Virus record (IMG/VR): IMGVR_UViG_3300020450_000008
Source of the DNA: a virus
Lineage: Duplodnaviria; Caudoviricetes
Length of the DNA: 64,000 nucleotides
Direction: 5' to 3' (one strand)
Positions 46,366-64,000 of this stretch are shown one piece after another. The notes beneath the pieces are model-generated. The model had not been told where the DNA came from and made no database searches. It was given only the letters and a program-made list of their open reading frames with translations. The translations under genes and the position numbers were made by a program. Position 1 is the first letter of the stretch; each line of letters begins with the position of its first letter.

Positions 46366-47052
46366 TTGGAGTATATAATGGAACTGAATGAAGACACACT
46401 TCAGATATTAAAGAACTTTGCTAGTATCAACTCAAACATAGTGTTTGATGAAGGTAGTACAATTAAAACTATATCTGAAGCAAAAAATATATTATCGGAA
46501 GCTACTATATCAGAAAGCTTTCCACAAAAGTTTGGTGTGTACGATTTAAATGAATTCTTAGGAGTACTTGGTTTAGTTGACAAACCTTCATTAAAGTTTG
46601 AAAAAGACTATGCTACTATTAATGACTCAACTGGTCGTTCAAAAGTAAAATATTTCTTTTCTGATACAGAAATGTTGACCACACCTTCTAAAACAATTAC
46701 AATGCCAGAAGCTGATGTATCTTTTAGTCTTGATGCCGATACACTTGGTAAGATAAGAAGAGCGGCTGGTGCTTTAGGACACAAAGAACTTAAGGTAGAA
46801 CCAAGTGGTGGAGCTGTATCTCTTACCGTTACATCCACAGAAAATTCAACAGCAAATACCTTCTCAATTGATGTAGATGGTACAGCAAACGTTGACAAAT
46901 ACAATTTTATTTTTAATATAAGTAATCTCAAGATGTTATCCGGAGATTATAATGTTGAAATATCTAAGAAACTAATATCTAAATTTACAAATTCTCAAAG
47001 CAATGTAAGTTATTGGATAGCCCTTGAAAAAACATCAACCTATGGAGTATAA
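46366..47052 (+). CDS. gp45: Sliding clamp gp45 (start probably 46378)
   Basis: LQILKNFASINSNI, FGVYDLNEFL, YWIALE motifs; RBS ggag precedes the 46378 ATG. Confidence 0.94.
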   Translation: MEYIMELNEDTLQILKNFASINSNIVFDEGSTIKTISEAKNILSEATISESFPQKFGVYDLNEFLGVLGLVDKPSLKFEKDYATINDSTGRSKVKYFFSDTEMLTTPSKTITMPEADVSFSLDADTLGKIRRAAGALGHKELKVEPSGGAVSLTVTSTENSTANTFSIDVDGTANVDKYNFIFNISNLKMLSGDYNVEISKKLISKFTNSQSNVSYWIALEKTSTYGV

Positions 47053-49853: not shown

Positions 49854-49871
49854 CAAAAAATATGGTATAAT
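49843..49871 (+). promoter_or_regulatory. Early/middle promoter TTTACG-N17-(TG)-TATAAT
   Basis: -35 at 49843-49848, -10 at 49866-49871; ATG only 6 nt downstream. Confidence 0.75.
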
Positions 49872-49876
49872 ATATT

Positions 49877-50470: not shown

Positions 50471-51219
50471 AACTAACTTTGATAGGCTATGGCTTTGTTG
50501 GAAAAGCAATGCATCATGTTTTAAACAAGTGGCATGATATTAAAATTGTAGATCCAGAATATACAATTCAAGAAATAGAAAATGATTCAGATGGATATAT
50601 TGTTTGTGTACCAACACCAAGTTCGCATGATGGTTCATGTGACTTTTCAATAGTTGAAGATGTAGTAAAACAATGTCCAAAAGATAAACCAATTTTAATA
50701 AAGAGCACTATTAGTTTGGAAGGATGGAGAAACTTACATCAGTATGAAAAGAGTTTAAATTTTAGTCCAGAATTTTTAACAGCAGCAAATTCTATATTAG
50801 ATGCCGAAAGTAAAGAGCATATGTTATTAGGTGGTCCAGATGCTGATTTTTGGAGCGACGTATTTTTAATGTATAAAAAAGTCTTAGCTCCAATTGAAGA
50901 GTTGATATTAACTAAGTATATAATAAATTGTTTTCTTGCGTCAAAGGTTTCTTTCTTTAACGATATATATAAATTATGCAAAAACACCAATATTGATTAT
51001 GATAAAGTATGTGAACTTGTACAGACTGATGATAGGATAGGATCAAGTCATATGCAAGTACCAGGACCAGACGGTCAAATGGGATTTGGTGGTATGTGCT
51101 TTCCTAAAGATACAAAAGCATTAATTCATACTGGAATGCATTTTAGAAGTCCATTGACTTTGTTAAATGAAGTGGTGGCTTTAAACAATTTAGTAAGAGA
51201 AGACGATGAATCACTTTGA
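50467..51219 (+). CDS. UDP-glucose/GDP-mannose dehydrogenase family protein
   Basis: GYGFVG Rossmann motif, VCVPTP, IKST, FSPEFL, KY..NCFLASKVSFFN, GFGGMCFPKD; lacks the C-terminal UDP-binding domain. Confidence 0.9.
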   Translation: MKLTLIGYGFVGKAMHHVLNKWHDIKIVDPEYTIQEIENDSDGYIVCVPTPSSHDGSCDFSIVEDVVKQCPKDKPILIKSTISLEGWRNLHQYEKSLNFSPEFLTAANSILDAESKEHMLLGGPDADFWSDVFLMYKKVLAPIEELILTKYIINCFLASKVSFFNDIYKLCKNTNIDYDKVCELVQTDDRIGSSHMQVPGPDGQMGFGGMCFPKDTKALIHTGMHFRSPLTLLNEVVALNNLVREDDESL

Positions 51220-51586
51220 TTATTTAAAAAGTATAACTGATTCCAAAGAAGACATCATGGTTGATGATCTTGCAGAAAAAGATTATAATGCATTTATGGT
51301 TAACAGAGGGCTATCATATTATAATGATACTGTCATATATGCAAATGAAATGAATAAGAATTCTCATATAGATTCCAGATTACAATTTGATTTCTTAAAA
51401 CAAATAATAAGAAAAAGAAAAAGATTCTCTAAATGGAATAAAGCAGATAAATTAGCTGATATAGAAGTTATTAAAGAATATTACGGTTATTCGAGAGATA
51501 AAGCTTATCAAGTTCTTCCTTTATTATCTAAAGATAAAATTGATCATCTTCGAAAGAAGATCAGTAAAGGTGGTAGAAATCCGTAG
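51206..51586 (+). CDS. gp62: Clamp loader small subunit gp62
   Basis: YNAFMVNRGLS, QFDFL...RKRKRFSKW, IKEYYGYS motifs. Confidence 0.93.
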   Translation: MNHFDYLKSITDSKEDIMVDDLAEKDYNAFMVNRGLSYYNDTVIYANEMNKNSHIDSRLQFDFLKQIIRKRKRFSKWNKADKLADIEVIKEYYGYSRDKAYQVLPLLSKDKIDHLRKKISKGGRNP

Positions 51587-51605
51587 ATTTATAAATAGAT
51601 CTACG
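51582..51605 (+). promoter_or_regulatory. Late promoter TATAAATA (51590-51597) enclosed by inverted repeat cgtagat/atctacg
   Basis: Direct reading of the sequence upstream of regA. Confidence 0.7.
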
Positions 51606-51625
51606 AACAATATAATAAAATAACC

Positions 51626-52051
51626 GTGAGTTTTAAAATGGAAGAACAACAGACTCTTATTGAGTGGAAGCCGGAAGAAATGTTAGAAGTTTCCCTCAAT
51701 GAACCTGACGATTTTTTAAAGGTCAGAGAAACACTTACCAGAATCGGTGTAGCATCAAGAAAAGACAAAAAGCTTTATCAATCTTGCCATATACTACATA
51801 AGCAAGGTCGATATTTTATCGTGCATTTTAAAGAACTTTTTTTATTAGATGGAAAAAAATCTAATTTAGAAGAATCAGATATAGCTAGAAGAAATACAAT
51901 AGCAACTCTTATGAGTGATTGGGGCTTAGTAACAGTAGATAATTTAGATAATCTCGCACCACTAGCGCCCTTAAGACAAATTAAAATTATATCATTTAGA
52001 GATAAAAACGCATGGGAACTTTGTCCGAAGTACAACATCGGGAAAAAGTAA
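51626..52051 (+). CDS. regA: Translational repressor RegA
   Basis: DDFLKVRETLTRIGVAS, LYQSCHILHKQGRYFIVHFKELF motifs. Confidence 0.97.
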   Translation: MSFKMEEQQTLIEWKPEEMLEVSLNEPDDFLKVRETLTRIGVASRKDKKLYQSCHILHKQGRYFIVHFKELFLLDGKKSNLEESDIARRNTIATLMSDWGLVTVDNLDNLAPLAPLRQIKIISFRDKNAWELCPKYNIGKK

Positions 52052-52917
52052 GATTTTACATTTGGACAGATAATAGGTTAACGTATGACTATTATCTGTT
52101 CGATGAAAAATTTACTAATTGCTTTACATCAGTTGAAACAATATTCAGAGATGTTAACGTAGATTATTTTTCAAAATTCAATCCTTCTGAATATAACTTA
52201 ATAGTACTTCCTGTGTGGGATATGGATTCATATTATCATTTGATATACAATATGTCAGATAATTTAAGATCTTTCGCGGTATCAAAAAATATACCAATAG
52301 TACTAGCGGCAGGTGATTCAAATATTTTAGAGGGTAAAGAATTTGATAAACTAAAAACTTGCGGCATACCTTCAAAAAGTTTAAAAATACTAGTAAATGA
52401 ATCTGAAATAAAAAATGATTACATAATATCAATAAATGCTTTTCCTGCAAAGCTTTATAATTTTTTTGGATGGAAACTTCATTATGATTATTTTGAAGCG
52501 TTTAATGTACTACAGCCATTAGATAAAGACTATTATGTTTCAAAAGATGATACGGTGTCTCAATGGTTTGAAACATGGCAGATTAGAAGTTCTGCAATAT
52601 CAGTTTTAGATAAAAAAGTTGAGTATTGGAAAGCTTTAATGTTAGGTGCTCCTTTTATATGGAATTCAGATAAAAAATTAAAAACTTACTTTGAATCATT
52701 TGGTTTTAAAATGTATCCATGGATTGATTACTCGTTTGATGGAGATCCAAAGAAAGTAAAAAAAGAATTAAAAAGACTTTTAAATATCGATAATATTAGA
52801 CTATTTGTTAAAAAAAATTCTTATTATATTAATTTACATAATAAAAGATTATTTCATAAGATAGCATTAAAAGATGATAACTATTCATTTTTTGCAAAAC
52901 AGGTATTTACTTTTTGA
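52012..52917 (+). CDS. Hypothetical protein; C-terminal part resembles GT-B/GT10-like glycosyltransferase segments
   Basis: WKALMLGAPFIW...YFESFGFKMY.WIDYSFD...ELKRL...HN pattern resembles the (TEK).K....PFI..G...L...GF..F...IDESYD family; the TEK motif itself is not conserved. Confidence 0.35.
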   Translation: MGTLSEVQHREKVRFYIWTDNRLTYDYYLFDEKFTNCFTSVETIFRDVNVDYFSKFNPSEYNLIVLPVWDMDSYYHLIYNMSDNLRSFAVSKNIPIVLAAGDSNILEGKEFDKLKTCGIPSKSLKILVNESEIKNDYIISINAFPAKLYNFFGWKLHYDYFEAFNVLQPLDKDYYVSKDDTVSQWFETWQIRSSAISVLDKKVEYWKALMLGAPFIWNSDKKLKTYFESFGFKMYPWIDYSFDGDPKKVKKELKRLLNIDNIRLFVKKNSYYINLHNKRLFHKIALKDDNYSFFAKQVFTF

Positions 52918-52934
52918 ATAAATTATGGTATAAT
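52906..52934 (+). promoter_or_regulatory. Early/middle promoter TTTACT-N17-(TG)-TATAAT
   Basis: -35 at 52906-52911, -10 at 52929-52934, upstream of Hsp20. Confidence 0.8.
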
Positions 52935-53006
52935 AATATTATATATAGTTATAGGCGCTGAATAATCAGGCCTTAAATTTTAACCTTGCTAAATTAGGAG
53001 GCAACA

Positions 53007-53465
53007 ATGACTGGTACTTTTATGTTCCCTAGGAACGCTTTTTTAGGTTTCGACCATCTTTTTGACGAACTCGAAAAAATCACAAATCACGCAAATGACT
53101 CATACCCACCTCACAATGTAATTAAACATGGTGATCACAAGTATGATATAGAATTAGCGATTGCTGGATTCTCTAAGGACGATATTAATATCGAACTAAA
53201 AGAACACGTATTAACGATTAAAGGTGATAGTGGTAAAGAGAAAGATAAAAAATATGTCCACAAAGGCATATCAGGTCGAAAGTTCTATAAATCGTTCAGG
53301 TTATCAGAGTACGCAGAAGTCAGTGGTGCAGATCTAACGGATGGAATCTTAACTGTCAGTATCGAAGTTATTCTACCGAAAGAGAAGCGACCCCAACTTA
53401 TTGAAATAGGAACGGGGAGAAAAACCAATGGCAGTAGTGCTCAATTACTTAATGAAGATCTTTAA
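53007..53465 (+). CDS. Small heat-shock protein Hsp20 (IbpA-like)
   Basis: FLGFDHLFD, YPPHNV, ELAIAGF, HKGISGRKF, DGILTV alpha-crystallin motifs. Confidence 0.95.
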   Translation: MTGTFMFPRNAFLGFDHLFDELEKITNHANDSYPPHNVIKHGDHKYDIELAIAGFSKDDINIELKEHVLTIKGDSGKEKDKKYVHKGISGRKFYKSFRLSEYAEVSGADLTDGILTVSIEVILPKEKRPQLIEIGTGRKTNGSSAQLLNEDL

Positions 53466-53589
53466 TTCAACTAAACTAAATGCTCAGGAGAGATTTCTTT
53501 CACTATCGAAAGATACTGCTGATCTTGAAAGAAGAACTAAAGAACTTATACATTCAACTAAAATACCTACATACAGGTATTGGATTTAA
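53428..53589 (+). CDS. Small protein (53 aa, not in ORF track), DUF3563-like: MAVVLNYLMKIF...ERFLSLSKDTADLERRTKEL
   Basis: RBS ggggag; E.FL..S.D.ADLERR motif; ends just before a hairpin. Confidence 0.6.
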   Translation: MAVVLNYLMKIFNSTKLNAQERFLSLSKDTADLERRTKELIHSTKIPTYRYWI

Positions 53590-53595
53590 TCTAGG

Positions 53596-53615
53596 GAGCG
53601 GGCTTCGGCCCGCTC
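53596..53615 (+). terminator. cUUCGg hairpin, probable terminator
   Basis: gagcgggc-TTCG-gcccgctc perfect 8-bp stem; weak U-tract. Confidence 0.75.
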
Positions 53616-53640
53616 TAAACTTTTAAAAGAGGATAGAACA

Positions 53641-53916
53641 ATGTCAGCTATAGCAACAGCTTTTTTAGAAAGAACCTGTCATATATGCGATGCCGTAAAT
53701 CTTTTTGTATATAAGTTATACATAAAAGCAAAGTGGAGTAAAGAACTTCGTAGAAACTATAATGCGTTTGAAAACCTACTTAGTAAATACGATAGTGAAG
53801 CAGGTTATCATTTAACAAGAATGAACGAAGCAACTAACGAAAAATATCAAAACAAATTAAATGCAACTAAACTAAAACCTTTTAAGTGGGGTTGGGAAGA
53901 TAATGGAGATGACTAA
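53641..53916 (+). CDS. Hypothetical protein
   Basis: RBS gagga; 91-aa ORF coupled to the next gene. Confidence 0.55.
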   Translation: MSAIATAFLERTCHICDAVNLFVYKLYIKAKWSKELRRNYNAFENLLSKYDSEAGYHLTRMNEATNEKYQNKLNATKLKPFKWGWEDNGDD

Positions 53917-54352
53917 TATGAAAAACTTTTATTTAATTCTGATAACAATGTGTTTTATGGGTGGTATGTTTTTATCTGCGAATGCTGCAGATATGTCAAT
54001 AGATATGCTGAACAAACAAGGTAAAGAAAAAATGTTATACAGTGTTAACGTAGCTGAAGTTGACGTTGGAGACACTATTACCTGGCAGCCAAAAGATAAA
54101 GGACATAACGTACAGTTTATCGCTGGTCCTGATGGATGGAAACTTCCAAAGAAGTCTAAGATGAATGCTGTAGTTGAAATTACTTTTGATACTCCAGGTA
54201 TGTATCTTTATCAGTGTACACCACACGCAACAATGGGCATGATCGGCGTTGTAATAGTTGGTGGTGACGTATCTAATAAAGATGCTATTGCTAAAGTTAA
54301 AATTAGAGGCAAAAGTAAAAAGAAACTGAAGAAAATACTGAAAGATATTTAA
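53903..54352 (+). CDS. Pseudoazurin-like blue copper protein with signal peptide (start probably 53917)
   Basis: Type-1 Cu ligands intact: GHNVQF and YQCTPHATMGM; GDTITW; hydrophobic leader ending ANA-A. Confidence 0.9.
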   Translation: MEMTNMKNFYLILITMCFMGGMFLSANAADMSIDMLNKQGKEKMLYSVNVAEVDVGDTITWQPKDKGHNVQFIAGPDGWKLPKKSKMNAVVEITFDTPGMYLYQCTPHATMGMIGVVIVGGDVSNKDAIAKVKIRGKSKKKLKKILKDI

Positions 54353-54367
54353 ACTATAAATTATATT

Positions 54368-54790
54368 ATGAAAATGAAAATACCCGAATTTTGTTTATCA
54401 CAGTGGCTATTAAGACTACCCTTAGCCATTGTGTTCATTCAACAAGGACTTGACAAGATTCCTGTTGATATTGAAACCGCAGAATCATTTGAACTATCCT
54501 ACTTAGTATGGTGGTTTGTAGCTTATGGAGAACTGTTAGCTGGAATCGGATTACTAGTAGGAGGTTTGATGACCAAACCCTACCTTCCAATATTAAATAG
54601 ATGTTATATACCTGACATTGGCGATATGTTAACACGATTTAGTGGTATCACGATGTGTTGTATAATGACTGGTGTCATATGGATTGGCGAGCCAGCAAGC
54701 TTTATGGACGTTCTTCTCTATGATAACCTACATGTCTTTTTATGGGTAGGTGGAACATTTTTTGCTCTACGTGGTAACAGAGCAAAGTAA
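54368..54790 (+). CDS. DoxX-family membrane protein
   Basis: LLRLPLAIVFIQQGLDK, AYGELLAGIGLLVG; multiple transmembrane segments. Confidence 0.8.
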   Translation: MKMKIPEFCLSQWLLRLPLAIVFIQQGLDKIPVDIETAESFELSYLVWWFVAYGELLAGIGLLVGGLMTKPYLPILNRCYIPDIGDMLTRFSGITMCCIMTGVIWIGEPASFMDVLLYDNLHVFLWVGGTFFALRGNRAK

Positions 54791-54808
54791 CACACACAGG
54801 AGGACAAT

Positions 54809-55042
54809 ATGTCTAAAAACCCGTACGAGATACGTCTCGAAACACTTCGCATGGCGAAAGAAATGCTTGATAGATCATTTGAAATGAAATACGATTTCAT
54901 GCGTGAAATGATTGAGCAAGCCAAAGAAACTAATCAACCTATTAAAGATGCATACGACAAGTATGTACCTGATATGTTTAAACCAGAAGAGGTTGTCAAA
55001 AAAGCTGATGAACTCTATAACTATGTGTCAGCCAAAAAATAG
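54809..55042 (+). CDS. Conserved small phage hypothetical protein
   Basis: RBS aggagg; KNPYEIRLETLRMAK...A.ELY.YV motif. Confidence 0.7.
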   Translation: MSKNPYEIRLETLRMAKEMLDRSFEMKYDFMREMIEQAKETNQPIKDAYDKYVPDMFKPEEVVKKADELYNYVSAKK

Positions 55043-55043
55043 G

Positions 55044-55072
55044 TTTACAATTCAACTAAATTATGATATAAT
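55044..55072 (+). promoter_or_regulatory. Early/middle promoter TTTACA-N17-(TG)-TATAAT for gp43
   Basis: -35 at 55044-55049, -10 at 55067-55072; predicted +1 coincides with the ATG at 55079. Confidence 0.8.
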
Positions 55073-55078
55073 TACAGT

Positions 55079-57610
55079 ATGAAATCTTTTTATACTTCCG
55101 TAAATCGCTATGGCAATTCTATACTTTATCGTGGTTACAACGAAAATGGAGCTGCCATAGCTCAAAGATATAAATTTTCACCTACACTCTATACACCATC
55201 AAAGAAACCTACCAAGTTTAAAGGCTTTGATAGTGGATATGTTGCACCATTAAGTTTTCCAACTATGAGGGATGCTAAAGAATGGCTGGAACAATATCAA
55301 GAGATGGAAGGTGTAAATATATTTGGCACAAAAAATTATATACATCAGTTTATTACAGAAAAATTTCCTGATAAAATAGACTTTGAGCCAAATGCTATCA
55401 ATGTTGTTAACTTCGATATAGAAGTTGCATCTGATTCTGGATTTCCAGTTCCGGAACAAGCGGCATATCCAATCACAGCAATCACAGTTAAATCAAGTCA
55501 ATCTTCAGTATATCAAGTCTGGGGTTGTGGCGAATACAGCTCAGAAAAATGTGAAATAGAACTATATGGAAATCTGATTCAATATCACAAGTGTAAGAAT
55601 GAAACAGAATTACTTGCTAAGTTTCTTGGTTATTGGATAAAAAATTATCCTGATGTTATAACAGGTTGGAATACTCGATTCTTTGATATTCCATACATTG
55701 TAAATCGTATAAAAAATGTTGGTGGTGAAGCAGCTGCTAATAGATTATCTCCTTGGAAATTAGTAAGTGAAAGAAACCTAATGATTGGCGGCCGTATGAA
55801 TTATGGCTATGACATAACTGGCATTCAACAAGCAGACTATTTAGAATTATTTAGAAAGTTTGGATATTCATATGGTCCACAAGAATCATATCGTCTTGAT
55901 CATATCGGTCATGTTGTACTTGGTGAACGCAAACTTTCTTTTGAAGAACATGGTAGCTTATTAAATCTGTATAAAAATGATCATCAAAAATTTATTGATT
56001 ATAATATTAAAGATGTTCAATTAGTAGATCGAATCGATCAGAAGATGGGACTTATTAATCTAGTATTTACTATGGCTTATAGAGCTGGTGTTAATGTTAC
56101 AGATACATTTGGCACTACAGCAATATGGGAATCAATCATTTATCGTAGATTACAGAAAAATAATATCATAAGCCCTATTGATCAAATTAAAAAAGTCATT
56201 TATCAAAATAAATCAAATGCAAATGTTATTGAAGGTGGCTATGTTAAGGAACCTCAAGTTGGTGCACATGACTGGGTGGTATCATTTGATCTAAACTCTC
56301 TATATCCAAACATAATAGTTCAGTCTAATATATCACCCGAAACTTTAATTAAAGATAAATCATTCGGTCATTACGAACAAGATGTCCAACACTATCTTAA
56401 CAGTAAAGATAAAACGTCAAAAGAATATTCTATATGTGCAAGTGGTGTTCCTTTCTCTCATGAAAAACAAGGTATCATACCAGAGTTAATTGTTGAATAT
56501 TATGCAGAACGTACACAAATTAAAAAGAAAATGTTAGAAGCTAAATCTGCATATGAAAAAGAAAAGTCTCGCCAACTTGAAGCAGAAATTAATCAACTTG
56601 AAAATAATCAAATGGCCATCAAGATCTTATTGAACTCTCTTTATGGCGCATTGGCCAATAAGTACTTTAAGTATTTTGATAATGCTCTTGCCGAAAGTGT
56701 TACACTTACTGGTCAGCTTTCGATTAAATGGGCAGAAAAAGCTATCAATCAAGAGATGAATAAAGTTCTTAAGACTGGTAATAAAGACTATGTTATAGCA
56801 ATCGATACCGATTCTTTATACATTAACTTTGGTCCACTTGTGCAAAAGCTAAATCCAAAAGATCCAGTTGCGGCTATTGATAAACTATGCCAAACACATT
56901 TTGAAAAGAAACTTGCTGAGGCTTATGATAAACTATTTAATAACTTAAATGGTTATACACCTAGAATGGAAATGGGTAGGGAGGTTATTGCTGATCGTGG
57001 AATCTGGACAGCTAAGAAAAGATATATTCTTAACGTACATAACTCAGAAGGCGTACAATATGCTGAACCTAAACTTAAGATTATGGGTATTGAAGCTATC
57101 AAATCTTCTACACCAGAAGTTGTTCGTAATAAATTTAAAGAGGCATTCAAGATTATAGTGTCAGGTGATGAGTTAAAAACTCGTCAGTTTATTAATGATT
57201 TTAAAGAAGAGTTTAAACTACTTTCTCCAGAGATGGTATCATTTCCAAGAAGTGTACAAAATGTCGGTAAGTGGAAAGATAGAATACACATTTATTCTAA
57301 AGGTACTCCAATTCATGTTCGTGGCGCGCTTTTATATAATCATCATGTATCAGATCTTTTCCTCGATAAAAAATATTCTCAAATCAGCTCAGGCGATAAG
57401 ATAAAATTTTCTTATCTCAGATTACCAAATCCTATCAAAGAAAATGTTATATCGTTTCCTGACTTCTTACCACAAGAATTCAAGCTTCATAAATATATCG
57501 ATTATGATACTCAATTTGATAAAACATTTATCGAGCCACTCAATCCAATACTTGAAGCGGTTGGGTGGTCAGTAAAAGAACAAGCAACCTTAGAGGAGTT
57601 TTTTGGATGA
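55079..57610 (+). CDS. gp43: Family B DNA polymerase gp43
   Basis: Exo motifs FDIEV, TGWNTRFFD; Pol motifs SFDLNSLYP, KILLNSLYGA, IDTDS, KKRY; uninterrupted. Confidence 0.98.
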   Translation: MKSFYTSVNRYGNSILYRGYNENGAAIAQRYKFSPTLYTPSKKPTKFKGFDSGYVAPLSFPTMRDAKEWLEQYQEMEGVNIFGTKNYIHQFITEKFPDKIDFEPNAINVVNFDIEVASDSGFPVPEQAAYPITAITVKSSQSSVYQVWGCGEYSSEKCEIELYGNLIQYHKCKNETELLAKFLGYWIKNYPDVITGWNTRFFDIPYIVNRIKNVGGEAAANRLSPWKLVSERNLMIGGRMNYGYDITGIQQADYLELFRKFGYSYGPQESYRLDHIGHVVLGERKLSFEEHGSLLNLYKNDHQKFIDYNIKDVQLVDRIDQKMGLINLVFTMAYRAGVNVTDTFGTTAIWESIIYRRLQKNNIISPIDQIKKVIYQNKSNANVIEGGYVKEPQVGAHDWVVSFDLNSLYPNIIVQSNISPETLIKDKSFGHYEQDVQHYLNSKDKTSKEYSICASGVPFSHEKQGIIPELIVEYYAERTQIKKKMLEAKSAYEKEKSRQLEAEINQLENNQMAIKILLNSLYGALANKYFKYFDNALAESVTLTGQLSIKWAEKAINQEMNKVLKTGNKDYVIAIDTDSLYINFGPLVQKLNPKDPVAAIDKLCQTHFEKKLAEAYDKLFNNLNGYTPRMEMGREVIADRGIWTAKKRYILNVHNSEGVQYAEPKLKIMGIEAIKSSTPEVVRNKFKEAFKIIVSGDELKTRQFINDFKEEFKLLSPEMVSFPRSVQNVGKWKDRIHIYSKGTPIHVRGALLYNHHVSDLFLDKKYSQISSGDKIKFSYLRLPNPIKENVISFPDFLPQEFKLHKYIDYDTQFDKTFIEPLNPILEAVGWSVKEQATLEEFFG

Positions 57611-58338
57611 CAAATTATGTTTTCGATGTGGATGGAACACTTACACGTAGTAGGGGAAGAATAAATGAAGGATTTAGAAGATTCTTCTTAAAATTTATTC
57701 AAGATCATAAAGTATATCTTGTTACTGGAAGTGACTACTATAAGACAGTAGAACAAGTTAGTCGTGAGGTCACTGAATCAGTTGAAAAGGTATTTAATTG
57801 TTCTGGGAATAGTGTTTGGAGAAAAGGTTTAAATATTCAAAAAACGGATTGGAGTATTCCTATGGAAGTAAAGGACTGGCTTAAAAAGAAACTTAATGAA
57901 AGTAAGTTTGATTTAAGAACTGGAAATCATATAGAAGAGCGACCAGGACTTGTAAACTTTAGTACCATAGGTAGAGGCTGCAACTTAGAACAAAGACAAT
58001 CGTATGTAAAGTTTGATAGCATACATGAAGAAAGAGAAAAGATTACAAAAGAATTTAATGATAAATTTAAAGATATTACTGCTCAGGTTGCTGGAGAAAC
58101 TGGGATAGATATTATACCAGCTGGAAAAGATAAAAGACAAGTAGCATTTATGATTGATGGACCTATAACATTTTTTGGTGATAAAATGAAATATGGAGGA
58201 AATGATTATCCATTGAAATTTGCCATAGAAGGTCGTGCTGATTCAGGTGCTATAGAAGTTAAAGATTGGGAACAAACGCATAGATACTTACAACAAATAC
58301 AAATTTTCAGTTTACAAGAAGCTGTCGGTATGGTATAA
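57565..58338 (+). CDS. HAD-IIB phosphatase/phosphomannomutase-like protein (start probably 57608)
   Basis: FDVDGTL, LVTGSD, IEERPGLVNFS..GR, FFGDKM..GGNDY motifs of eukaryote-type PMM. Confidence 0.8.
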   Translation: MVSKRTSNLRGVFWMTNYVFDVDGTLTRSRGRINEGFRRFFLKFIQDHKVYLVTGSDYYKTVEQVSREVTESVEKVFNCSGNSVWRKGLNIQKTDWSIPMEVKDWLKKKLNESKFDLRTGNHIEERPGLVNFSTIGRGCNLEQRQSYVKFDSIHEEREKITKEFNDKFKDITAQVAGETGIDIIPAGKDKRQVAFMIDGPITFFGDKMKYGGNDYPLKFAIEGRADSGAIEVKDWEQTHRYLQQIQIFSLQEAVGMV

Positions 58339-58339
58339 T
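58311..58339 (+). promoter_or_regulatory. Early/middle promoter TTTACA-N17-(TG)-TATAAT
   Basis: -35 at 58311-58316, -10 at 58334-58339. Confidence 0.8.
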
Positions 58340-58359
58340 ATACTTGGAAGGATAAAATT

Positions 58360-58773
58360 ATGAGTACACATTGGTCAAAAGATATTAGTGATATGCATCA
58401 AAAGTTTGGTGTTAATAAATGGTTTACTAAAAATAAATCAAACAAAGAGATTATGAAAAAATATCTTATGTTTCGAATGCTTATGTTAAATGAAGAACTA
58501 CATGAAACGATGCAAGCTGTAAATAGTGAAAACCCAGAAGAAATAGTAGATGGTTTGATAGACATATGTGTATTTGCAATAGGTACTCTCAATGTTTTAG
58601 AAGTTGATGCTGATAAAGCTTGGGATGCCATACATAATGCAAACATGGCAAAAGAACCTGGCGTAAAAGCTGGTAGACCTAATCCTTTCGGTATGCCAGA
58701 TCTATTAAAGCCAGAAGGTTGGAAAGGACCTGATCATAGCGACAATCATGGAAGTATCAGCGACATTCTTTAA
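58360..58773 (+). CDS. All-alpha NTP pyrophosphohydrolase (MazG-like), candidate dCTPase
   Basis: EELHE...EIVDGLID metal-binding motif; ANMAK, KPEGW. Confidence 0.8.
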   Translation: MSTHWSKDISDMHQKFGVNKWFTKNKSNKEIMKKYLMFRMLMLNEELHETMQAVNSENPEEIVDGLIDICVFAIGTLNVLEVDADKAWDAIHNANMAKEPGVKAGRPNPFGMPDLLKPEGWKGPDHSDNHGSISDIL

Positions 58774-59677
58774 ATCAATATACGATAATAAAACACATCG
58801 TAGAATGGATTTCCCAAACTTTCCTAAGTTTGAGGAGTTCCTATATAAATTATCTGAAAGAAAACTTGGAGGCAAAAATGATGCAGAACTTATGTGTCCA
58901 GCTACGTTCACTAAAGATACTACCCGAGCCAATAGAAACGTATTGGATTGGGCAGGCTGGGCTGCTGTTGATGTTGACGATTATGAATTCAAAGGGGATA
59001 TAAAAGATGCTTTACGCGATACAATTGGCTCTTTCCATTACATTTGTTATAGTACTGCTAGCAGCCGAGAAAGTCTTCCAAAGTTTCGTATTGTCTTTCC
59101 AACTCGAGAAAGAATTGGAGCAGGCAACATCAGAGCTTTCTGGTATGCTCTCAACTCAAAGCTCGAGTCAATTGGTGATAAACAAACTAAGGACCTCTCA
59201 CGCATGTATTATACTCCTGCTACGTATAATGGCGCTTTCAACTTTATCTTTACTAATGCTGGCTCTATTTTAAATCCAGCTGATCTAATAGAAAAATATC
59301 CATACGTTGAGAAAAATACAGGTAAAACATTCTTGGATAGATTACCCGAAGCTTTACAAAAGCAAATAATACAACATCGTAAAGATAAAGCTGAAAATAG
59401 AGATATACGATGGAATCATTACAGTGATTGTCCGTTCTGGCCACAAAGACTCGCATCAGAATACAAAGTAATAAGTAACACAGGTTGGTATCATAAGATG
59501 TATCAAATTATGGTTGCCACTGCAAGTAAAGCAATTCAAAGAGAATATCCTATTACATCTACAGAGATATCAGAAATGTGTAAAGCATTTGATGCTGATA
59601 ATGGTAATTGGTACCAGAATAGACCTATTGATAAAGAAGCGGATAGAGCAATTGAATATGCATATAAAAATATGTAA
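58748..59677 (+). CDS. Archaeo-eukaryotic primase (AEP/PrimPol)-like protein with helical C-terminal domain
   Basis: AAVDVDD (motif I DxD), YSTASS..PKFRIVFP (motif II region), DKQTKDLSRMYY (motif III). Confidence 0.7.
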   Translation: MEVSATFFKSIYDNKTHRRMDFPNFPKFEEFLYKLSERKLGGKNDAELMCPATFTKDTTRANRNVLDWAGWAAVDVDDYEFKGDIKDALRDTIGSFHYICYSTASSRESLPKFRIVFPTRERIGAGNIRAFWYALNSKLESIGDKQTKDLSRMYYTPATYNGAFNFIFTNAGSILNPADLIEKYPYVEKNTGKTFLDRLPEALQKQIIQHRKDKAENRDIRWNHYSDCPFWPQRLASEYKVISNTGWYHKMYQIMVATASKAIQREYPITSTEISEMCKAFDADNGNWYQNRPIDKEADRAIEYAYKNM

Positions 59678-59684
59678 AAAAGTA

Positions 59685-59713
59685 TTTACTTTTGTCAAAA
59701 AGTTTGTTATAAT
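59685..59713 (+). promoter_or_regulatory. Early/middle promoter TTTACT-N17-(TG)-TATAAT
   Basis: -35 at 59685-59690, -10 at 59708-59713. Confidence 0.8.
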
Positions 59714-59735
59714 AGAATTAGAATGGAGGTAAAAA

Positions 59736-60104
59736 ATGAAAGAATCAGTTAAAGTTTTACAAGAATGCGCTCAAATGCAAACTAAAAAATCAGCTGACTA
59801 TCAAAGCGATGAGTCAAGTGTATTACAAGCAATGCACTATCGTCGTGGCGTTGATACAATACACGATATTATAGTTGGCAAACTTATGCGTGCTACATCA
59901 TTACTTGAATCAGGCAACTCACCAAACTTTGAATCACTTGAAGATAGTTATAAAGATATGATTAATTATGCATCATTTGCAGTATCTTATATGCGTGGTA
60001 AGATGGAAGGCCAAAGACAAGATCGTGATATGTTTAATAAACCAATTGACCCATCAGCGACAGTTGAAATTGTTGAAGAACCAATTGAGGCGCATGACGA
60101 ATAA
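59736..60104 (+). CDS. Nucleotide-modification-associated domain 1 (Nmad1/DUF1599-like) protein
   Basis: Q.KKSADY ... K..R ... ESLEDSYKDMINYA pattern. Confidence 0.7.
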   Translation: MKESVKVLQECAQMQTKKSADYQSDESSVLQAMHYRRGVDTIHDIIVGKLMRATSLLESGNSPNFESLEDSYKDMINYASFAVSYMRGKMEGQRQDRDMFNKPIDPSATVEIVEEPIEAHDE

Positions 60105-60337
60105 TGGCCGGAGCAATCAATACACCTTTAAGACAACTTATTATGGATTGGAGTGCATGCCAATTGTTAGAGAAAGATCCTGATAATATTGTTCTTAAAA
60201 AACTTAGATCTTGGGAGCATCCTGAAACAATAGAACTAAATAAACTATTAACACAATTTGAAAAAGATGGAAAATATCCAGAACACTATAATTTAGACTG
60301 GGGTTCAATTAATTATGAAGAGTTTATAAAAGAATGA
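60104..60337 (+). CDS. Hypothetical protein
   Basis: Translationally coupled on both sides (TAATG, ATGA). Confidence 0.55.
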   Translation: MAGAINTPLRQLIMDWSACQLLEKDPDNIVLKKLRSWEHPETIELNKLLTQFEKDGKYPEHYNLDWGSINYEEFIKE

Positions 60338-60681
60338 AAGCTGGAAAGATATGGGGTCAAACAGAACTAATCCATGCAAATGGTGTTCTAGAGTTTCATC
60401 GCATTGAATATAAAAAAGGCTTTAAATGTTCAGAGCATGAACATCAATTTAAATGGAATGGATTCTATGTTGAGTCCGGACAAATGCTTGTAAGAGTCTG
60501 GCAAGACGATCAAGAAGGATTAGTTGATGAAACTATATTAAATCCTGGAGACTTTACGCAAGTGAAACCTGGCAAGATTCATCAGTTCGAAGGACTTGAA
60601 GATGGAATTGCATTTGAACTTTATTGGGCTGAATTCAATCACAACGATATAGTTCGAAGAACTGTAGGAACAAAAGTATGA
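60334..60681 (+). CDS. Cupin-fold protein (sugar isomerase/epimerase-like)
   Basis: GKIWG, CSEHEHQFKWNGFYVESG, VKPGKIHQF cupin metal motifs. Confidence 0.8.
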   Translation: MKAGKIWGQTELIHANGVLEFHRIEYKKGFKCSEHEHQFKWNGFYVESGQMLVRVWQDDQEGLVDETILNPGDFTQVKPGKIHQFEGLEDGIAFELYWAEFNHNDIVRRTVGTKV

Positions 60682-60869
60682 TATATGGTTGGATATTGAT
60701 AATGATAACTCTACATCCTGATGGATCATTAGACGGTGGAGCAATAGATTATTTTAACACTTACCCAGAGTGTTTTGAAGTAATGAAAGAAATGTCGGTT
60801 ACAGGTCAAGGAACAGGTTATACCTGTGTAGATGACTATGTAGATATGAGTGGAGATATAGAACAGTGA
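60678..60869 (+). CDS. Small hypothetical protein
   Basis: Coupled overlaps; hydrophobic N-terminus; two Cys residues. Confidence 0.5.
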   Translation: MIYGWILIMITLHPDGSLDGGAIDYFNTYPECFEVMKEMSVTGQGTGYTCVDDYVDMSGDIEQ

Positions 60870-61282
60870 GAATTGGATTTACCTGCAGTACCTTTGATTT
60901 ACTTCATGCAGGCCATGTCATGATGTTAAGAGAAGCGAAAGCCCAATGTGATTATTTAATATGCGGACTGCAGGTAGATCCAAGTATAGACAGGCCAGAA
61001 AAGAATTCTCCTATACAATCTATTGTAGAAAGAGAAGCTCAATTATCAGCAATAAAATATGTTGATGAGGTGATTATTTATTGTACAGAAGATGATTTAT
61101 GTGATATAATTAATATGTACCCAATTGATATTAGAATATTAGGCGAAGAGTATAGAGATAGAGACTTTACTGGTAAAGATGAATGTAAGAAAAGAGGTAT
61201 TCAACTTTATTTCAATAAAAGAGAACATAGGTTTAGTACTTCAGATTTAAGGAAAAGAGTGTGCGAAAAGACGACATTATAG
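60866..61282 (+). CDS. Cytidylyltransferase (TagD/glycerol-3-phosphate CT-like; GTG start)
   Basis: STFDLLHAGH (HxGH), YVDEV, GEEY, RFSTSDLR motifs. Confidence 0.9.
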   Translation: MRIGFTCSTFDLLHAGHVMMLREAKAQCDYLICGLQVDPSIDRPEKNSPIQSIVEREAQLSAIKYVDEVIIYCTEDDLCDIINMYPIDIRILGEEYRDRDFTGKDECKKRGIQLYFNKREHRFSTSDLRKRVCEKTTL

Positions 61283-61470
61283 ATCTAGGCATAGACTTAG
61301 GCGAACCAGACTTTACAACTAAAAATGATAGGCCAGGATTTATTAGTAGCAGTGGTTGGCCAGTTCGTAGAGAAATAACAAAGTTAAATGACAATATGAA
61401 AATTATGGTCAAGCAAATGAGTAAATTAAAAAAACAAATAAGTAAACTAGAGAAGAAACTAAATGGATAA
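61261..61470 (+). CDS. Small hypothetical protein with C-terminal coiled coil
   Basis: Fills the gap between the cytidylyltransferase and gp42-like genes, with overlaps at both ends. Confidence 0.45.
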   Translation: MRKDDIIDLGIDLGEPDFTTKNDRPGFISSSGWPVRREITKLNDNMKIMVKQMSKLKKQISKLEKKLNG

Positions 61471-62170
61471 TATTGTGGAAAATTTAACATGGGCAAAAGT
61501 AAAACATATTCGTCAGCATTTTAGAGATGAATTAAACAAAGAAGTATTTACTATTGATAAAACTGGTCAAAAGACTATTGAAATGATTGGTGCATCTTTT
61601 GTTGCTGATGAATCAGCAATATTTGGTACTCCTAATCGAGAATATATTGATGCAGAAATAGATTGGTACAATAGTAGATCTACAAATATAAATGAAATAT
61701 TTGGAATCACAAAAGCACCACCACAAGCTTGGCAATATTCAGCTAATAAGTTTGGTGAGATCAACTCTAATTATGGCCACTTAATCTTTAGTGAAAAATT
61801 TTATAATCAATATTTACATGTTGTAGAAGAATTAATAAATAATCCTGATAGTCGTAGAGCCGCAATGATTTACAATCGTCCTTCAATATGGCTTGAATAT
61901 AATGAAGACGGTAAGAATGATTTTATCTGTACTAATGCTGTTACATACTATATACGTAATAGAAGATTAGATGCTGTAGTTCAAATGAGATCTAACGATG
62001 TGGTATATGGCTATAAAAATGATTATGCCTGGCAACAATACGTTATGAAACAACTTATTGAAGATATAAATGTTCAAAGACCCGATGATGATCAAGTCTT
62101 TAAAGGTTTTATGCATTGGCAGGTTCAAAACTTACATGTGTATGAAAGGCACTTTGATTTAGTACAATGA
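61463..62170 (+). CDS. gp42: dCMP hydroxymethylase (T4 gp42-like, thymidylate synthase fold)
   Basis: DKTGQKTIEMIGASFVADE, EINSNYG, NPDSRR, DFICTN (catalytic Cys), MRSNDVVYGYKNDYAWQ with Asp at the dCMP-specificity position (Asn in thymidylate synthase); closely follows the T4 gp42 sequence as I recall it. Confidence 0.9.
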   Translation: MDNIVENLTWAKVKHIRQHFRDELNKEVFTIDKTGQKTIEMIGASFVADESAIFGTPNREYIDAEIDWYNSRSTNINEIFGITKAPPQAWQYSANKFGEINSNYGHLIFSEKFYNQYLHVVEELINNPDSRRAAMIYNRPSIWLEYNEDGKNDFICTNAVTYYIRNRRLDAVVQMRSNDVVYGYKNDYAWQQYVMKQLIEDINVQRPDDDQVFKGFMHWQVQNLHVYERHFDLVQ

Positions 62171-62715
62171 GTCAATTATTTAAAGATCCAAAAAAACCAG
62201 CATTATTTGCAGATATGAATGATCCTGTTCTTAACGCGACATATAAAACAATGAATATTATTGGAGTCGATCCTGAAAAGAAATGGGATGTAAGATATAT
62301 TGAACTAGCCTACAAAGTAAGTGAATGGTCAAAAGATCCATCAACAAAGATAGGATGTGTGGTTGTAGGAAATAAGGGACAGGTATTGACTCAAGGATAC
62401 AACGGTTTTCCTCGTGGTATTGATGACTCAAATGAAAGACTTACAGATAGAGAAACTAAATTGAAATACGTTGTTCATGGAGAAATGAACGCGATATATA
62501 ATGCTTGTTATAATGGAATATCTCTTGAAGGAAGTACCATGTATGTTACTGGTCTTCCAACATGCTCTGATTGCGCCAAGGGTGTAATACAAGTAGGTGT
62601 TAAAAGAGTTGTCTGGCCTAAAGAACTTGAAAATGTTGAAGACAGATGGAAAGAATCTGTTAAATTAACTATGTCTATGTTCGATGAAGCTGGAGTAGAG
62701 TATGAGTTCATCTAA
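62167..62715 (+). CDS. cd: dCMP deaminase
   Basis: SKDPSTKIGCV, GYNGFPRG, HGEMNA, PTCSDC zinc motifs. Confidence 0.92.
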   Translation: MSQLFKDPKKPALFADMNDPVLNATYKTMNIIGVDPEKKWDVRYIELAYKVSEWSKDPSTKIGCVVVGNKGQVLTQGYNGFPRGIDDSNERLTDRETKLKYVVHGEMNAIYNACYNGISLEGSTMYVTGLPTCSDCAKGVIQVGVKRVVWPKELENVEDRWKESVKLTMSMFDEAGVEYEFI

Positions 62716-63619
62716 TGCTCAAACAAATTTAAGTCGACTTAAATTAGCAGCAGATAAACCTAAAACTGTTGTAGCTTCTGATTGGAAAAGGTATTATAGT
62801 CGGTATGTTGACAGGGCTTTCGCAAGAACAATCAATATTGATACATCTACACGTTGCTTGATGCAATGTCCTTTTTGCTCTCGCCAAAATTTTGCAACTG
62901 GTAAACTGCACATCAAAACAAATAGAACGTTTTATGGAGATTTAACTCCAGAAAATGCTTTACAAATGGCTGATGCATTTGATCGTATAAGTTTTTGTGG
63001 TCAAATATCAGATCCAATATTTCATAAAAATTTATTCTCTATATTTGAAGCCTTAGATCAAGGTGCTGCTATTAGAACACTTGAGTTTCATACAGTTGCC
63101 TCTGGAAAAAAAATGGCTTGGTGGGAAAGAGTTTTCTCATATATGGAGAATGCAAAATATAAAACTGATTTTATCATAGGTATTGATGGAATTGATCAGA
63201 AAACAGCTTCTCATAGAATAGGACAAAACTTTGAAGAAGCATGGGAAGTCTTACGATATTTTGCTGATAATAAAAGAGATAATATAGATATCACCTGGCA
63301 GTTCATACCCTTTTTATATAATGAAGATGAAGTGTTAACTGCGGCAGAAACTGCTGTTTCATTAGGGATAAATTTATTACTTCTCAAATCATCTCGTCAC
63401 GTTGGAGAGTATAAGACAAATACTGGAGATAAAAAATATGCTATAGGAGCTGATTTATACACTCAAGAAGAATTTGAAAAAAAATTTCAAGGTCATTTAC
63501 CATTAGCTCCAACGAAATCATTTTTAAAATCAAATAATGGTATAACAAGTTTTAATGATGGATATATAAAAACAAAGGAAGATATAAAAGAATTAGAAAG
63601 AGTTTTAAATGAATCCTAA
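62702..63619 (+). CDS. Radical SAM protein
   Basis: CLMQCPFC (CxxxCxxC), SFCGQISDP, IGIDG, WQFIPF.YNE motifs. Confidence 0.88.
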   Translation: MSSSNAQTNLSRLKLAADKPKTVVASDWKRYYSRYVDRAFARTINIDTSTRCLMQCPFCSRQNFATGKLHIKTNRTFYGDLTPENALQMADAFDRISFCGQISDPIFHKNLFSIFEALDQGAAIRTLEFHTVASGKKMAWWERVFSYMENAKYKTDFIIGIDGIDQKTASHRIGQNFEEAWEVLRYFADNKRDNIDITWQFIPFLYNEDEVLTAAETAVSLGINLLLLKSSRHVGEYKTNTGDKKYAIGADLYTQEEFEKKFQGHLPLAPTKSFLKSNNGITSFNDGYIKTKEDIKELERVLNES

Positions 63620-64000
63620 ACCTATTAGTTTTGAAATTGATCCAGTGTGTGTACCATTTGATAAAAATGGAGAAGAAAGAGAACAACAAAATTGCGTAGC
63701 CTTCGGTTCTCATGGTTGGTACATGCCATGCTGTTGGTGTGATCAGTTTCAAGATACTCGAAATAATTATATGGATATGTATTCTAAACATTTACATGCT
63801 TCAACTGGAATTACACCAAGAGAAGTCCTTGAATCTCCAGAATGGCAAAATTTCTTTAAAGTTATTTTTGAAGACCCACAAAACTCTTCTCATGTTTGTC
63901 AAAAATATTGTGGTGTCATAAATTATGATGATGGTACAAAAAGAAATGTCGTAGGATTTACTGATCAAGAAAGAAGAGATATGGGAAAAGATCTTGAATT
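63609..64000 (+). CDS. Stand-alone SPASM/twitch-like Fe-S domain protein, 3'-truncated (not in ORF track)
   Basis: Open frame MNPKPISFEIDPVCVP...GWYMPCCWCD...EWQNFF...VCQKYCG runs to the window end; overlaps the radical SAM stop. Confidence 0.7.
   Translation, partial: MNPKPISFEIDPVCVPFDKNGEEREQQNCVAFGSHGWYMPCCWCDQFQDTRNNYMDMYSKHLHASTGITPREVLESPEWQNFFKVIFEDPQNSSHVCQKYCGVINYDDGTKRNVVGFTDQERRDMGKDLE

Follow-up and report, generated by a model that had tools for sequence, protein, structure and literature searches.

A predicted T4-type cytosine-replacement module in an uncultured marine phage and candidate hydroxymethylcytosine-modifying enzymes in its neighboring variable island

The 64,000-nt stretch of DNA analyzed here (hereafter the window; IMG/VR record IMGVR_UViG_3300020450_000008) belongs to an uncultured marine T4-like (Kyanoviridae-like) phage and carries, downstream of DNA polymerase gene 43, what is probably a cytosine-replacement module. 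Therein, an orthologue of T4 gp42, a deoxycytidine monophosphate (dCMP) hydroxymethylase, would provide 5-hydroxymethylcytosine (hmC), which three enzymes encoded in a variable island and carrying polymerase-type C-terminal tails would then modify further. The core of the module is of a known kind, the hmC pathway of T4, and its variant with a PRA-PH-type pyrophosphohydrolase has already been tied to modified cytosine by MetaGPA. New are the assignment of this variant to a large T4-like clade of marine phages, a distinction between genes truly partnered with gp42 and bystanders, and a candidate decorator set which contains neither glucosyltransferase nor kinase and is marked by the polymerase-type tails.

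All genes of the early/replication block concerned lie on the + strand, at a GC content of about 33%, and the relevant features are compiled in Table 1. The phage's own genome was searched over about 111 kb; contig L082, which is 100% identical to window positions 51463-64000, extends past the window end. As relatives, the best 80 of at least 563 IMG/VR contigs encoding a gp42 relative were used, with gp42 being 62-96% identical to that of the window, and the counts of loci given below derive from presence/absence and gene-order tables over these 80 related loci. C48C1, the nearest complete genome lacking gp42 (gp43 54% and UvsX 74% identical), served as reference, with a relative as positive control in each search.

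The thymidylate synthase (TS)-fold protein of the cluster shares 53% identity with T4 gp42 over 223 residues (E-value 3e-81) and matches the structure of T4 dCMP hydroxymethylase (1b49) with an E-value of 1.1e-70. A first-pass annotation of this DNA had placed a catalytic Cys at 61928 and a dCMP-specifying Asp at 62021 in a TS-fold gene downstream of gp43. Both coordinates are exact: the two codons encode Cys156 and Asp187, aligned to T4 Cys148 and Asp179, and the polymerase gene indeed lies upstream on the same strand. In an alignment of 83 sequences (the window protein, 80 IMG/VR relatives, T4 and Muldoon), residues D153, C156, D179 and D187, which correspond to T4 D145, C148, D171 and D179, are invariant (83/83), and all phosphate-binding and catalytic residues checked are kept in the window protein and in 80/80 relatives.

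Flavin-dependent 5-hydroxy-dCMP synthases, such as those of RB69 and DLP3, account for many of the homologues that share this Cys and Asp and are called 'gp42' (Lee et al., NAR 2026, PMC13326640). If the window protein were of this type, the resulting base would be 5-hydroxycytosine (5hoC), and the class, long annotated as gp42, does retain the Cys, has Asp at the site equivalent to E. coli ThyA N177 and is acidic at L143. According to the same work, the choice of dCMP is specified by Asp at N177, acidity at L143 goes with water access and thus a hydroxymethyl product, and Asn at the ThyA D169 position marks the 5-hydroxy-dCMP synthases, T4-type hydroxymethylases having Asp there (PMC13326640). 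The window protein and 80/80 relatives display Asp at all three positions, including the diagnostic D169 position, which together with the 53% identity to T4 gp42 renders the 5hoC reading very unlikely. The same three residues argue against an enzyme acting on dUMP, either in a 5-hydroxymethyluracil (5-hmU) pathway or as an ordinary thymidylate synthase. An AADT/HMUDK-clan protein and a radical SAM enzyme, both known from 5-hmU-based thymidine hypermodification, are encoded nearby, but Asp187 occupies the site at which dUMP-specific enzymes have Asn, the phage encodes its own ThyX for dTMP, and no P-loop 5-HMUDK was found in the ~111 kb; we give this very unlikely reading next to no credence. 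By every sequence criterion now available, the gene product is a T4-type, dCMP-specific hydroxymethylase, and its earlier naming as gp42-like stands, the Asp at the D169 position excluding it from the 5-hydroxy-dCMP synthase class.

Four genes, encoding the MazG-like pyrophosphohydrolase, Nmad1, gp42 and the dCMP deaminase (cd), are what we take to be a co-inherited functional core, since they are shared across the clade and all four are absent from C48C1. The MazG-like gene occurs in 48 related loci and adjoins gp43 in most loci covering that side, where it is followed by the 309-aa open reading frame (ORF) and Nmad1; Nmad1 is present in 59/80 loci, and cd follows gp42 in 75/80. Pfam, PHROG and NCBIfam scans recovered the MazG-like protein, Nmad1, the cupin, the cytidylyltransferase and the deaminase on the + strand at the coordinates first reported, and the linkage of gp42 to the NTPase, Nmad1 and the deaminase suggested there is supported by the comparison, in which these genes travel with gp42 and others prove bystanders. 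The core also fits MetaGPA data, in which the joint occurrence of a TS with the specifying Asp, PF01503 and dCMP deaminase was specific to contigs whose cytosine had been found by experiment to be modified (PMC8670742).

The MazG-like protein scores 38.8 bits against PF01503 (E-value 1.3e-9, cut-off 21.3 bits), and its acidic metal-binding residues E45, E46, E49, E61, D64 and D68 are invariant in 33 sequences. No match to gp56, the dCTPase of T4, was found in the ~111 kb of this phage or in three relatives by a search that does find gp56 in Muldoon; the MazG-like protein itself reaches an E-value of 0.7 against gp56, and Nmad1 one of 0.043 over 16 residues. Given that no gp56 homologue was found, the MazG-like protein appears a reasonable stand-in for it. 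The closest cultured homologues of Nmad1 (56% identity) lie directly upstream of gp42 in the Serratia phages Muldoon and PS2. The MazG-like protein matches positions 52-139 and Nmad1 positions 193-252 of the PHROG 18404 profile, which may be read as a MazG-like/Nmad1 fusion family because the two proteins match separate parts of it. Nmad1 as a MazG paralogue or gp56 substitute was considered and rejected: hhalign against the MazG-like family gave a probability of 0.15, VIA was unspecific, and Muldoon has both Nmad1 and gp56. The top Foldseek matches of Nmad1 are DCTPP1, RS21-C6 and MazG, but all at E-values above 1; a predicted complex of the gp42 dimer with Nmad1 scored 0.00, which counts neither for nor against an interaction, and a literature search on Nmad1 function yielded nothing useful.

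The cluster has only two real intergenic gaps, each holding a sigma70-like promoter match; an equal one lies ahead of gp43 (55044). The first-pass annotation had called the two gap sites dedicated promoters. The sites are present at 58311 and 59685, but the attribute 'dedicated' is unproven: the region contains 47 such sites compared with 46.5 in shuffles, so that only their placement favors them. The start of the primase-like ORF overlaps the MazG-like gene by 26 nt (58748-58773), and from 60104 on successive genes abut or overlap by 1-22 nt, as translationally coupled early genes would.

In T4, the order of genes is 46-45-44-62-regA-43-(imm)-42-beta-gt-uvsX-40-41. The order in this phage, gp46-gp45-gp44-...-gp62-regA-...-gp43-[cluster]-gp42-cd-[island]-uvsX-x-gp41, matches it, and gp42 hence occupies its ancestral slot, with the stretch between cd and uvsX as the positional counterpart of the T4 β-glucosyltransferase gene. 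This stretch appears to be a hypervariable 'decorator' island. Here, cd is followed by the radical SAM gene, the Cys-rich 193-aa ORF, a 112-aa ORF, a gene for a uracil-DNA glycosylase (UDG)-like protein, the MIPS-like and HAD genes, the genes for the 356-aa (helix-hairpin-helix, HhH), 328-aa (SGNH) and C5-methyltransferase-fold (C5-MTase-fold) proteins, an epimerase gene and then uvsX; the HhH, SGNH and C5-MTase-fold genes begin 2.7 kb past the window end. Relatives have alternative sets in the island, namely a gene of the T4 α-glucosyltransferase (AGT) family (PF11440, E-value 3.6e-31; 17 loci), a protein of no known family together with UDP-galactopyranose mutase (15 loci), or a nucleotidyltransferase-kinase fusion. 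No homologues of the relatives' island genes (AGT, c25, c72, c15, c38, c24, GLF and KdsA-like) and no T4 α- or β-glucosyltransferase were found in the ~111 kb of this phage. Since its sister phages have true homologues of DNA hmC glucosyltransferases, there is strong support for the clade's DNA carrying hmC.

The three proteins proposed as decorators are of different types. According to its predicted structure (pLDDT 81), the 328-aa protein is of the SGNH/GDSL fold with putative acyltransferase/esterase activity: Foldseek gave an E-value of 3e-6, VIA Z-scores of 12.6-12.9 with the top 50 matches all SGNH, and the motifs G151 D152 S153 H154 (GDSH) and D201..H204 (DxxH) are invariant. The family occurs in 27 related loci. 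A glycosyltransferase function, raised by a weak Pfam match to T4-Gluco-transf, was rejected as the catalytic domain is SGNH-fold; for the N-terminal domain, a weak lead to T4 β-glucosyltransferase was obtained (Pfam E-value 0.074, BLASTP 0.011, Foldseek to 1nzd 5.9e-3). Of the 5-hmdU DNA kinases, the 356-aa protein resembles only the helical domain (PF18723), as a member of the HMUDK-helical/AADT clan. Its Atlas neighbors fall into HMUDK_hel, ADDT and aGPT-Pplase3 clusters, the latter two at 0.92-0.95, but no ADDT or aGPT-Pplase Pfam match was obtained at E-values up to 1. Known 5-HMUDKs are P-loop kinases (PMC8989533); the 356-aa protein as a kinase was discarded, neither it nor its surroundings containing a Walker A motif/P-loop. 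The C5-MTase-fold protein covers the full profile and exhibits CPC, with the catalytic Pro-Cys, and GENA motifs, along with a divergent motif I (PLIGGE) for S-adenosylmethionine binding. SGNH and HhH parts are fused in ORF233c (795 aa) of Aeromonas phage 44RR2.8t; identity amounts to 35% between its N-terminal part and the SGNH protein (E-value 1e-48) and to 24% between its C-terminal part and the HhH protein (E-value 1e-28). Phage 44RR2.8t has gp42, and ORF233c homologues are present in phages 31, 25 and phiAS4. Petrov et al. (PMC2993671) listed 44RR2.8t among the phages with genes 42 and 56 but no glucosyltransferase and asked whether, and by what, their hmC is modified. Literature searches on Aeromonas phage DNA modification and on C48C1 returned nothing useful.

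It is by their C termini that the three proteins are set apart. The C-terminal tail of the T4/RB69 polymerase binds the gp45 clamp. A tail of this type, L-[DE]-x-F-[FMLY], ends exactly four of the 128 ORFs in the ~111 kb, with about 0.05 expected by chance: gp43 (...TLEEFFG), HhH (...TLESFMQ), SGNH (...TLEEFFG) and the C5-MTase-fold protein (...QLDEFMV). Among the 1492 ORFs of the 80 relatives and L082, 100 of 102 tails belong to six families, i.e., gp43 (40/41), AGT homologues (15/17), C5-MTase-fold (20/26), HhH (2/3), SGNH (13/27) and family c15 (10/24), and none to gp42, cd, Nmad1, the cytidylyltransferase or UvsX. We infer that the island enzymes are brought by the gp45 clamp to freshly replicated DNA, and the shared tail suggests that it is they, rather than the products of the genes around gp42 first put forward, which act on hmC. 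The HhH, SGNH and C5-MTase-fold proteins are therefore the likely decorators, in preference to the sugar-type genes of the cluster. Family c15 (e.g., L038:11155-12303; 24 related loci) comprises proteins of 340-400 aa without Pfam match, the genes of which often adjoin the SGNH gene; owing to the tail in 10 of its 24 members it is probably another DNA-acting enzyme.

In the proposed pathway, the MazG-like pyrophosphohydrolase would lower dCTP and feed dCMP, and Nmad1 may work with it, as the two are fused in other phages. The gp42 orthologue would, judging from its signature residues, convert dCMP to 5-hydroxymethyl-dCMP, which some kinase would have to raise to the triphosphate (a gap in the pathway) before gp43 could incorporate the modified nucleotide. 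Drawing on the same dCMP pool, the deaminase and ThyX, encoded downstream of the window, could supply dTMP. Subsequently, the three tailed enzymes would ride gp45 and further modify hmC on newly replicated DNA, with a donor possibly supplied by the cupin/cytidylyltransferase pair, the phosphomannomutase (PMM)-like gene or the MIPS and HAD (inositol) pair.

Several points weigh against this scheme. The chemistry, including the presence of hmC in this phage's DNA, is a prediction from its genes. The nearest solved structure to the MazG-like protein is DR2231, which is dUTPase-like, so that specificity for dCTP can only be inferred. No gp1-type dNMP kinase or other P-loop kinase was found in the ~111 kb or in three relatives (59-83% complete), in a search which had no gp1 positive control and outside of which lay about 58 kb upstream of the window. 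With all C5 positions substituted beforehand, a C5-MTase-fold enzyme would be unexpected, though some cytosines could stay unmodified. The tail is present in only about half of the SGNH homologues, and clamp binding by the island proteins would follow from likeness to gp43's own tail. Moreover, the known 5-hmU route, in which phosphorylation precedes substitution, cannot simply be copied, because the HhH protein lacks a kinase domain and an activating kinase did not turn up in the ~111 kb. C5-methyltransferases catalyze exchange reactions at the 5-hydroxymethyl group in vitro. As a tentative alternative, which we regard as possible but far from probable, a kinase-independent route could operate: the SGNH protein would O-acylate or otherwise activate the hydroxyl of 5-hmC, and the HhH protein, possibly with Cys attack at C6 by the C5-MTase-fold protein, or the latter itself, would replace the activated group by a nucleophile, for which an amino acid or inositol made by the phage could serve, with all three riding gp45. 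If true, such chemistry would explain the DNA modification of the glucosyltransferase-less gp42 Aeromonas phages 44RR2.8t, 31 and 25.

The modification of hmC might instead be carried out by other genes of the window, as initially proposed: the cupin and cytidylyltransferase could yield a polyol, phospho-alcohol or sugar in CDP-activated form, or the carbamoyltransferase upstream could provide a carbamoyl group. The cytidylyltransferase is, judging from its sequence, a genuine member of the CDP-alcohol-forming family, with HAGH as HxGH motif (residues 14-17) and matches to ethanolamine-phosphate cytidylyltransferase (PDB 3elb, E-value 1.4e-22) and TagD, and its product would be a phospho-alcohol or sugar activated with CDP or ADP. 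It is present in 45/80 loci with a median identity of 77%, which makes it the best-conserved protein of the cluster, and is missing from C48C1 (search with positive control). The cupin occurs in 24/80 loci, and a second cupin family (c33) with weak mannose-6-phosphate isomerase and GPI matches takes the same place in 10 more. As donor makers, these genes are hence credible in so far as the pair sits just upstream of gp42 in about half of the clade, with operon-like overlaps among the genes around it. The closest cultured cytidylyltransferase (69%), however, is that of Vibrio phage phiKT1024, which is without gp42, gp42-less cyanophages carry related ones beside carbamoyltransferases, and no transferase using a CDP-alcohol, NDP-sugar or glycosyl donor was found in the ~111 kb. 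For carbamoylation, there is precedent in environmental phages with a 5hmC carbamoyltransferase (PMC8670742), and the Carbam_trans_N and Carbam_trans_C architecture is present, but a specific linkage to the dCMP hydroxymethylase was not found: the best homologue (56%) is that of gp42-less C48C1, gp42-positive relatives reaching only 37-42%. The polymerase-type tail is on neither the cytidylyltransferase nor the carbamoyltransferase. The latter probably stands outside the hmC system, and carbamoyl as the hypermodification is not upheld; the cupin/cytidylyltransferase pair appears less clearly untied from gp42. Decoration by these genes is accordingly considered rather unlikely. Quite improbable, in our view, is also that hmC is partial or undecorated, with the C5-MTase-fold enzyme methylating leftover cytosines and the SGNH and HhH proteins acting on other targets than hmC, for instance host DNA, or in repair. 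The intact PC and ENx motifs of the C5-MTase fold, a UDG-like gene in the island and the failure to identify functions of the gp56, gp1, alc or denB type would be compatible with it. Yet the island enzymes share tail and genomic position with the DNA hmC glucosyltransferase homologues of sister phages, the SGNH-HhH fusion is found in gp42-positive, glucosyltransferase-less Aeromonas phages, and, in MetaGPA, contigs combining TS(Asp), PRA-PH and cd showed the behavior of fully modified DNA (PMC8670742). Hence, modification of hmC by the three tailed island enzymes remains the preferred reading.

Table 1 Features of the window and of contigs continuing past its end (L082, L089)
Feature	Position	Strand	Basis or remark
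Carbamoyltransferase, 454 aa	40947..42311	+	PF16861 E 2.8e-44, PF02543 E 3.9e-37
gp45 sliding clamp	46378..47052	+	PF09116 gp45-slide_C
gp43 DNA polymerase	55079..57610	+	DNA_pol_B; C-terminus ...TLEEFFG
PMM-like HAD-IIB hydrolase, accessory	57607..58338	+	PF03332 PMM, E 1e-25
Sigma70-like promoter match	58311..58339	+	TTTACA-17-TATAAT with TG, 11/12, extended -10; before MazG-like gene
MazG/HisE-type all-alpha NTP pyrophosphohydrolase, candidate dCTPase (possibly dUTPase)	58360..58773	+	PF01503 PRA-PH
Primase-like protein, 309 aa (BT4734-like_N / PriCT type)	58748..59677	+	PHROG 9765 'DNA primase' E 5.5e-43
Sigma70-like promoter match	59685..59713	+	TTTACT-17-TATAAT with TG, 10/12, extended -10; before Nmad1
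Nmad1 (DUF1599)	59736..60104	+	PF07659, 28.8 bits (cut-off 25)
77-aa ORF, no family	60104..60337	+	no Pfam/PHROG/NCBIfam match; 6/80 loci
Small cupin, possibly sugar-phosphate isomerase	60334..60681	+	Cupin_2, E 8e-8
63-aa ORF, no family	60678..60869	+	no Pfam/PHROG/NCBIfam match; 7/80 loci
Cytidylyltransferase, TagD/ECT/RfaE-II type	60866..61282	+	PF01467 CTP_transf_like, E 4.7e-13
69-aa ORF, no family	61261..61470	+	no family match; 2/80 loci
gp42 orthologue, predicted dCMP hydroxymethylase	61463..62170	+	Thymidylat_synt; T4 gp42 homology; diagnostic residues
dCMP deaminase (cd)	62167..62715	+	PF00383 dCMP_cyt_deam_1, E 3.9e-21
Radical SAM enzyme (CxxxCxxC), first island gene	62702..63619	+	PF04055 E 9e-8
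Cys-rich 193-aa ORF, 5' part	63609..64000	+	always after radical SAM gene; continues in L082
UDG-superfamily protein, 124 aa	L082:13090-13464 (about 1.1 kb past window end)		PF03167 E 2e-7; GQNPS, HPSPRN motifs
MIPS-like (myo-inositol-1-phosphate-synthase-like), 431 aa	L082:13511-14806		
Small HAD protein	L082:14799-15203		
HhH/HMUDK_hel protein, 356 aa	L082:15206-16276		PF18723 E 4e-9
SGNH protein, 328 aa	L082:16273-17259		
C5-MTase-fold protein, 398 aa	L082:17256-18452		PF00145 E 8.6e-18, full profile
Epimerase	L082:18461-19399		
uvsX	L082:19627-20664		
ThyX	L089:14928-15614		downstream of window; PF02511

Four small ORFs of the cluster had been put forward as candidates for new modification enzymes, which the comparison did not bear out. 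The largest of them, the 309-aa ORF, is by its profile matches a primase-like replication protein and not a modification enzyme; its Atlas neighbors carry PriCT_1 or BT4734-like_N, and it has a 50% homologue in gp42-less C48C1. The other three are barely conserved, as seen from the counts in Table 1. Rare as well is the PMM-like gene between gp43 and the MazG-like gene (4/80 loci). Within the island, the radical SAM gene travels with the following Cys-rich ORF in 4 related loci, and the UDG-like gene is found just after cd in 28/80; in a phage with hmC, its product could serve to excise uracil or to attack DNA that lacks the modification. C48C1 also keeps the epimerase and a UDP-glucose-dehydrogenase-like gene.

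In one relative (L052:7633-8412) and 12 other loci, a gene of the KDO-8-P/DAHP-synthase family (PF00793, E-value 5e-52) accompanies the cupin and the cytidylyltransferase between Nmad1 and gp42, which hints at an activated sugar acid in these relatives. In IMGVR_UViG_3300046171_000193 (97990-99594), a second, distant cytidylyltransferase-like gene adjoins a carbamoyltransferase-like gene, an arrangement that the annotations of cyanophages S-CAM1 and S-CAM3 also show. In the window itself, genes for an IMPDH-family protein (351 aa), an Rv2179c-like exonuclease (197 aa) and a short UDP-glucose/GDP-mannose-dehydrogenase-like protein (250 aa) are inserted between the clamp-loader genes gp44 and gp62 (48798-51219). 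An Hsp20 gene is located at 53007-53465, and just upstream of gp43 (53903-54790) a cupredoxin of the plastocyanin/azurin family with signal peptide is followed by a DoxX membrane protein. A second tight + strand operon of the same genome lies about 17-26 kb past the window end (contig L093:11346-20392). It encodes Asp/Arg-hydroxylase-like, class IV aminotransferase, IMPDH/GuaC-like, methyltransferase, B12-binding radical SAM and AMP-binding enzymes, and looks like a biosynthetic pathway for a small molecule or nucleotide derivative.

T4-style cytosine replacement is known so far mostly from enterobacterial phages. The at least 563 IMG/VR contigs encoding a gp42 relative point to a large uncultured aquatic T4-like clade, and the phage itself appears in several ocean surveys: an identical copy of its gp42 protein is encoded on the 15 metagenome contigs read, Tara Oceans assemblies among them, and the stretch occurs in public marine metagenomes of several studies. 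Short pieces 99-100% identical over gp43, the junction of the MazG-like and primase-like genes, Nmad1 and the cytidylyltransferase were also found in one metatranscriptome, probably of the source sample, in which DNA carry-over is possible, neither level nor strand can be read and gaps in coverage carry no meaning. The gp43 of this phage is 54% identical to the polymerase of C48C1 (Kyanoviridae) and 46-48% identical to those of cyanomyoviruses and Methylophilales phage Melnitz. In marine viromics, genome-wide hmC derivatives would have consequences for restriction, for CRISPR targeting, for sequencing and library bias, and for the prediction of hosts. Furthermore, the polymerase-type tail offers a simple sequence marker for enzymes probably acting on new DNA, and the SGNH and HhH pair, fused in cultured 44RR2.8t, is a candidate answer to a question posed in 2010, namely what gp42 phages lacking glucosyltransferases do with their hmC.

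Among known systems, that of T4 is closest with respect to the orthologous gp42 (53%) with all catalytic residues, the 43-uvsX slot, the presence of cd and the decorator genes at the β-glucosyltransferase position. In contrast to T4, a PRA-PH/MazG-like NTPase and Nmad1 are found here and no gp56 or gp1 homologue, dTMP would be formed via ThyX instead of td, and no glucosyltransferase is encoded, though sister phages have tailed genes of the α-glucosyltransferase family. The MetaGPA contigs (Yang et al., eLife 2021, PMC8670742), obtained in work that sampled coastal seawater viromes among others, share the co-occurrence of TS with Asp, PF01503 and dCMP deaminase/MafB19. There, however, the carbamoyltransferase (about 63 kDa) is encoded beside TS, and its action on hmC was demonstrated (PMC8670742), whereas the enzyme of this phage is encoded 19 kb away, has 454 aa and is closest to the copy of a gp42-less phage. 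The arabinosyl-5-hydroxycytosine system of RB69 and DLP3 (PMC13326640) likewise has, following the polymerase gene, a cluster of a TS homologue with Cys and Asp, genes for sugar nucleotides and DNA transferases, and relatives such as L003 share UDP-galactopyranose mutase with phage RL38JI; the predicted product here, with Asp instead of Asn at the ThyA D169 position, is hmC and not 5hoC.

Thymidine hypermodification in phages M6, ViI, SP10 and PhiW-14 (PMC5889632, PMC8989533) resembles the present system in its HMUDK_hel/AADT-clan protein and radical SAM enzyme beside a pyrimidine hydroxymethylase and in its post-replicative logic. It differs from it in that the base concerned here is cytosine, a P-loop kinase is lacking, the partner is of the SGNH fold, and an extra C5-MTase-fold protein is present. 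With Aeromonas phage 44RR2.8t and the homologues of its ORF233c in phages 31, 25 and phiAS4, the SGNH and HhH parts in gp42-positive phages are shared, but ORF233c is one fused protein encoded far from gp42, and those phages keep gp56. Finally, the Serratia phages Muldoon and PS2, of which Muldoon, unlike the phage described here, also has gp56 as well as α- and β-glucosyltransferase genes, exhibit the same arrangement of an Nmad1 homologue (56%) immediately upstream of gp42, between genes 43 and uvsX.

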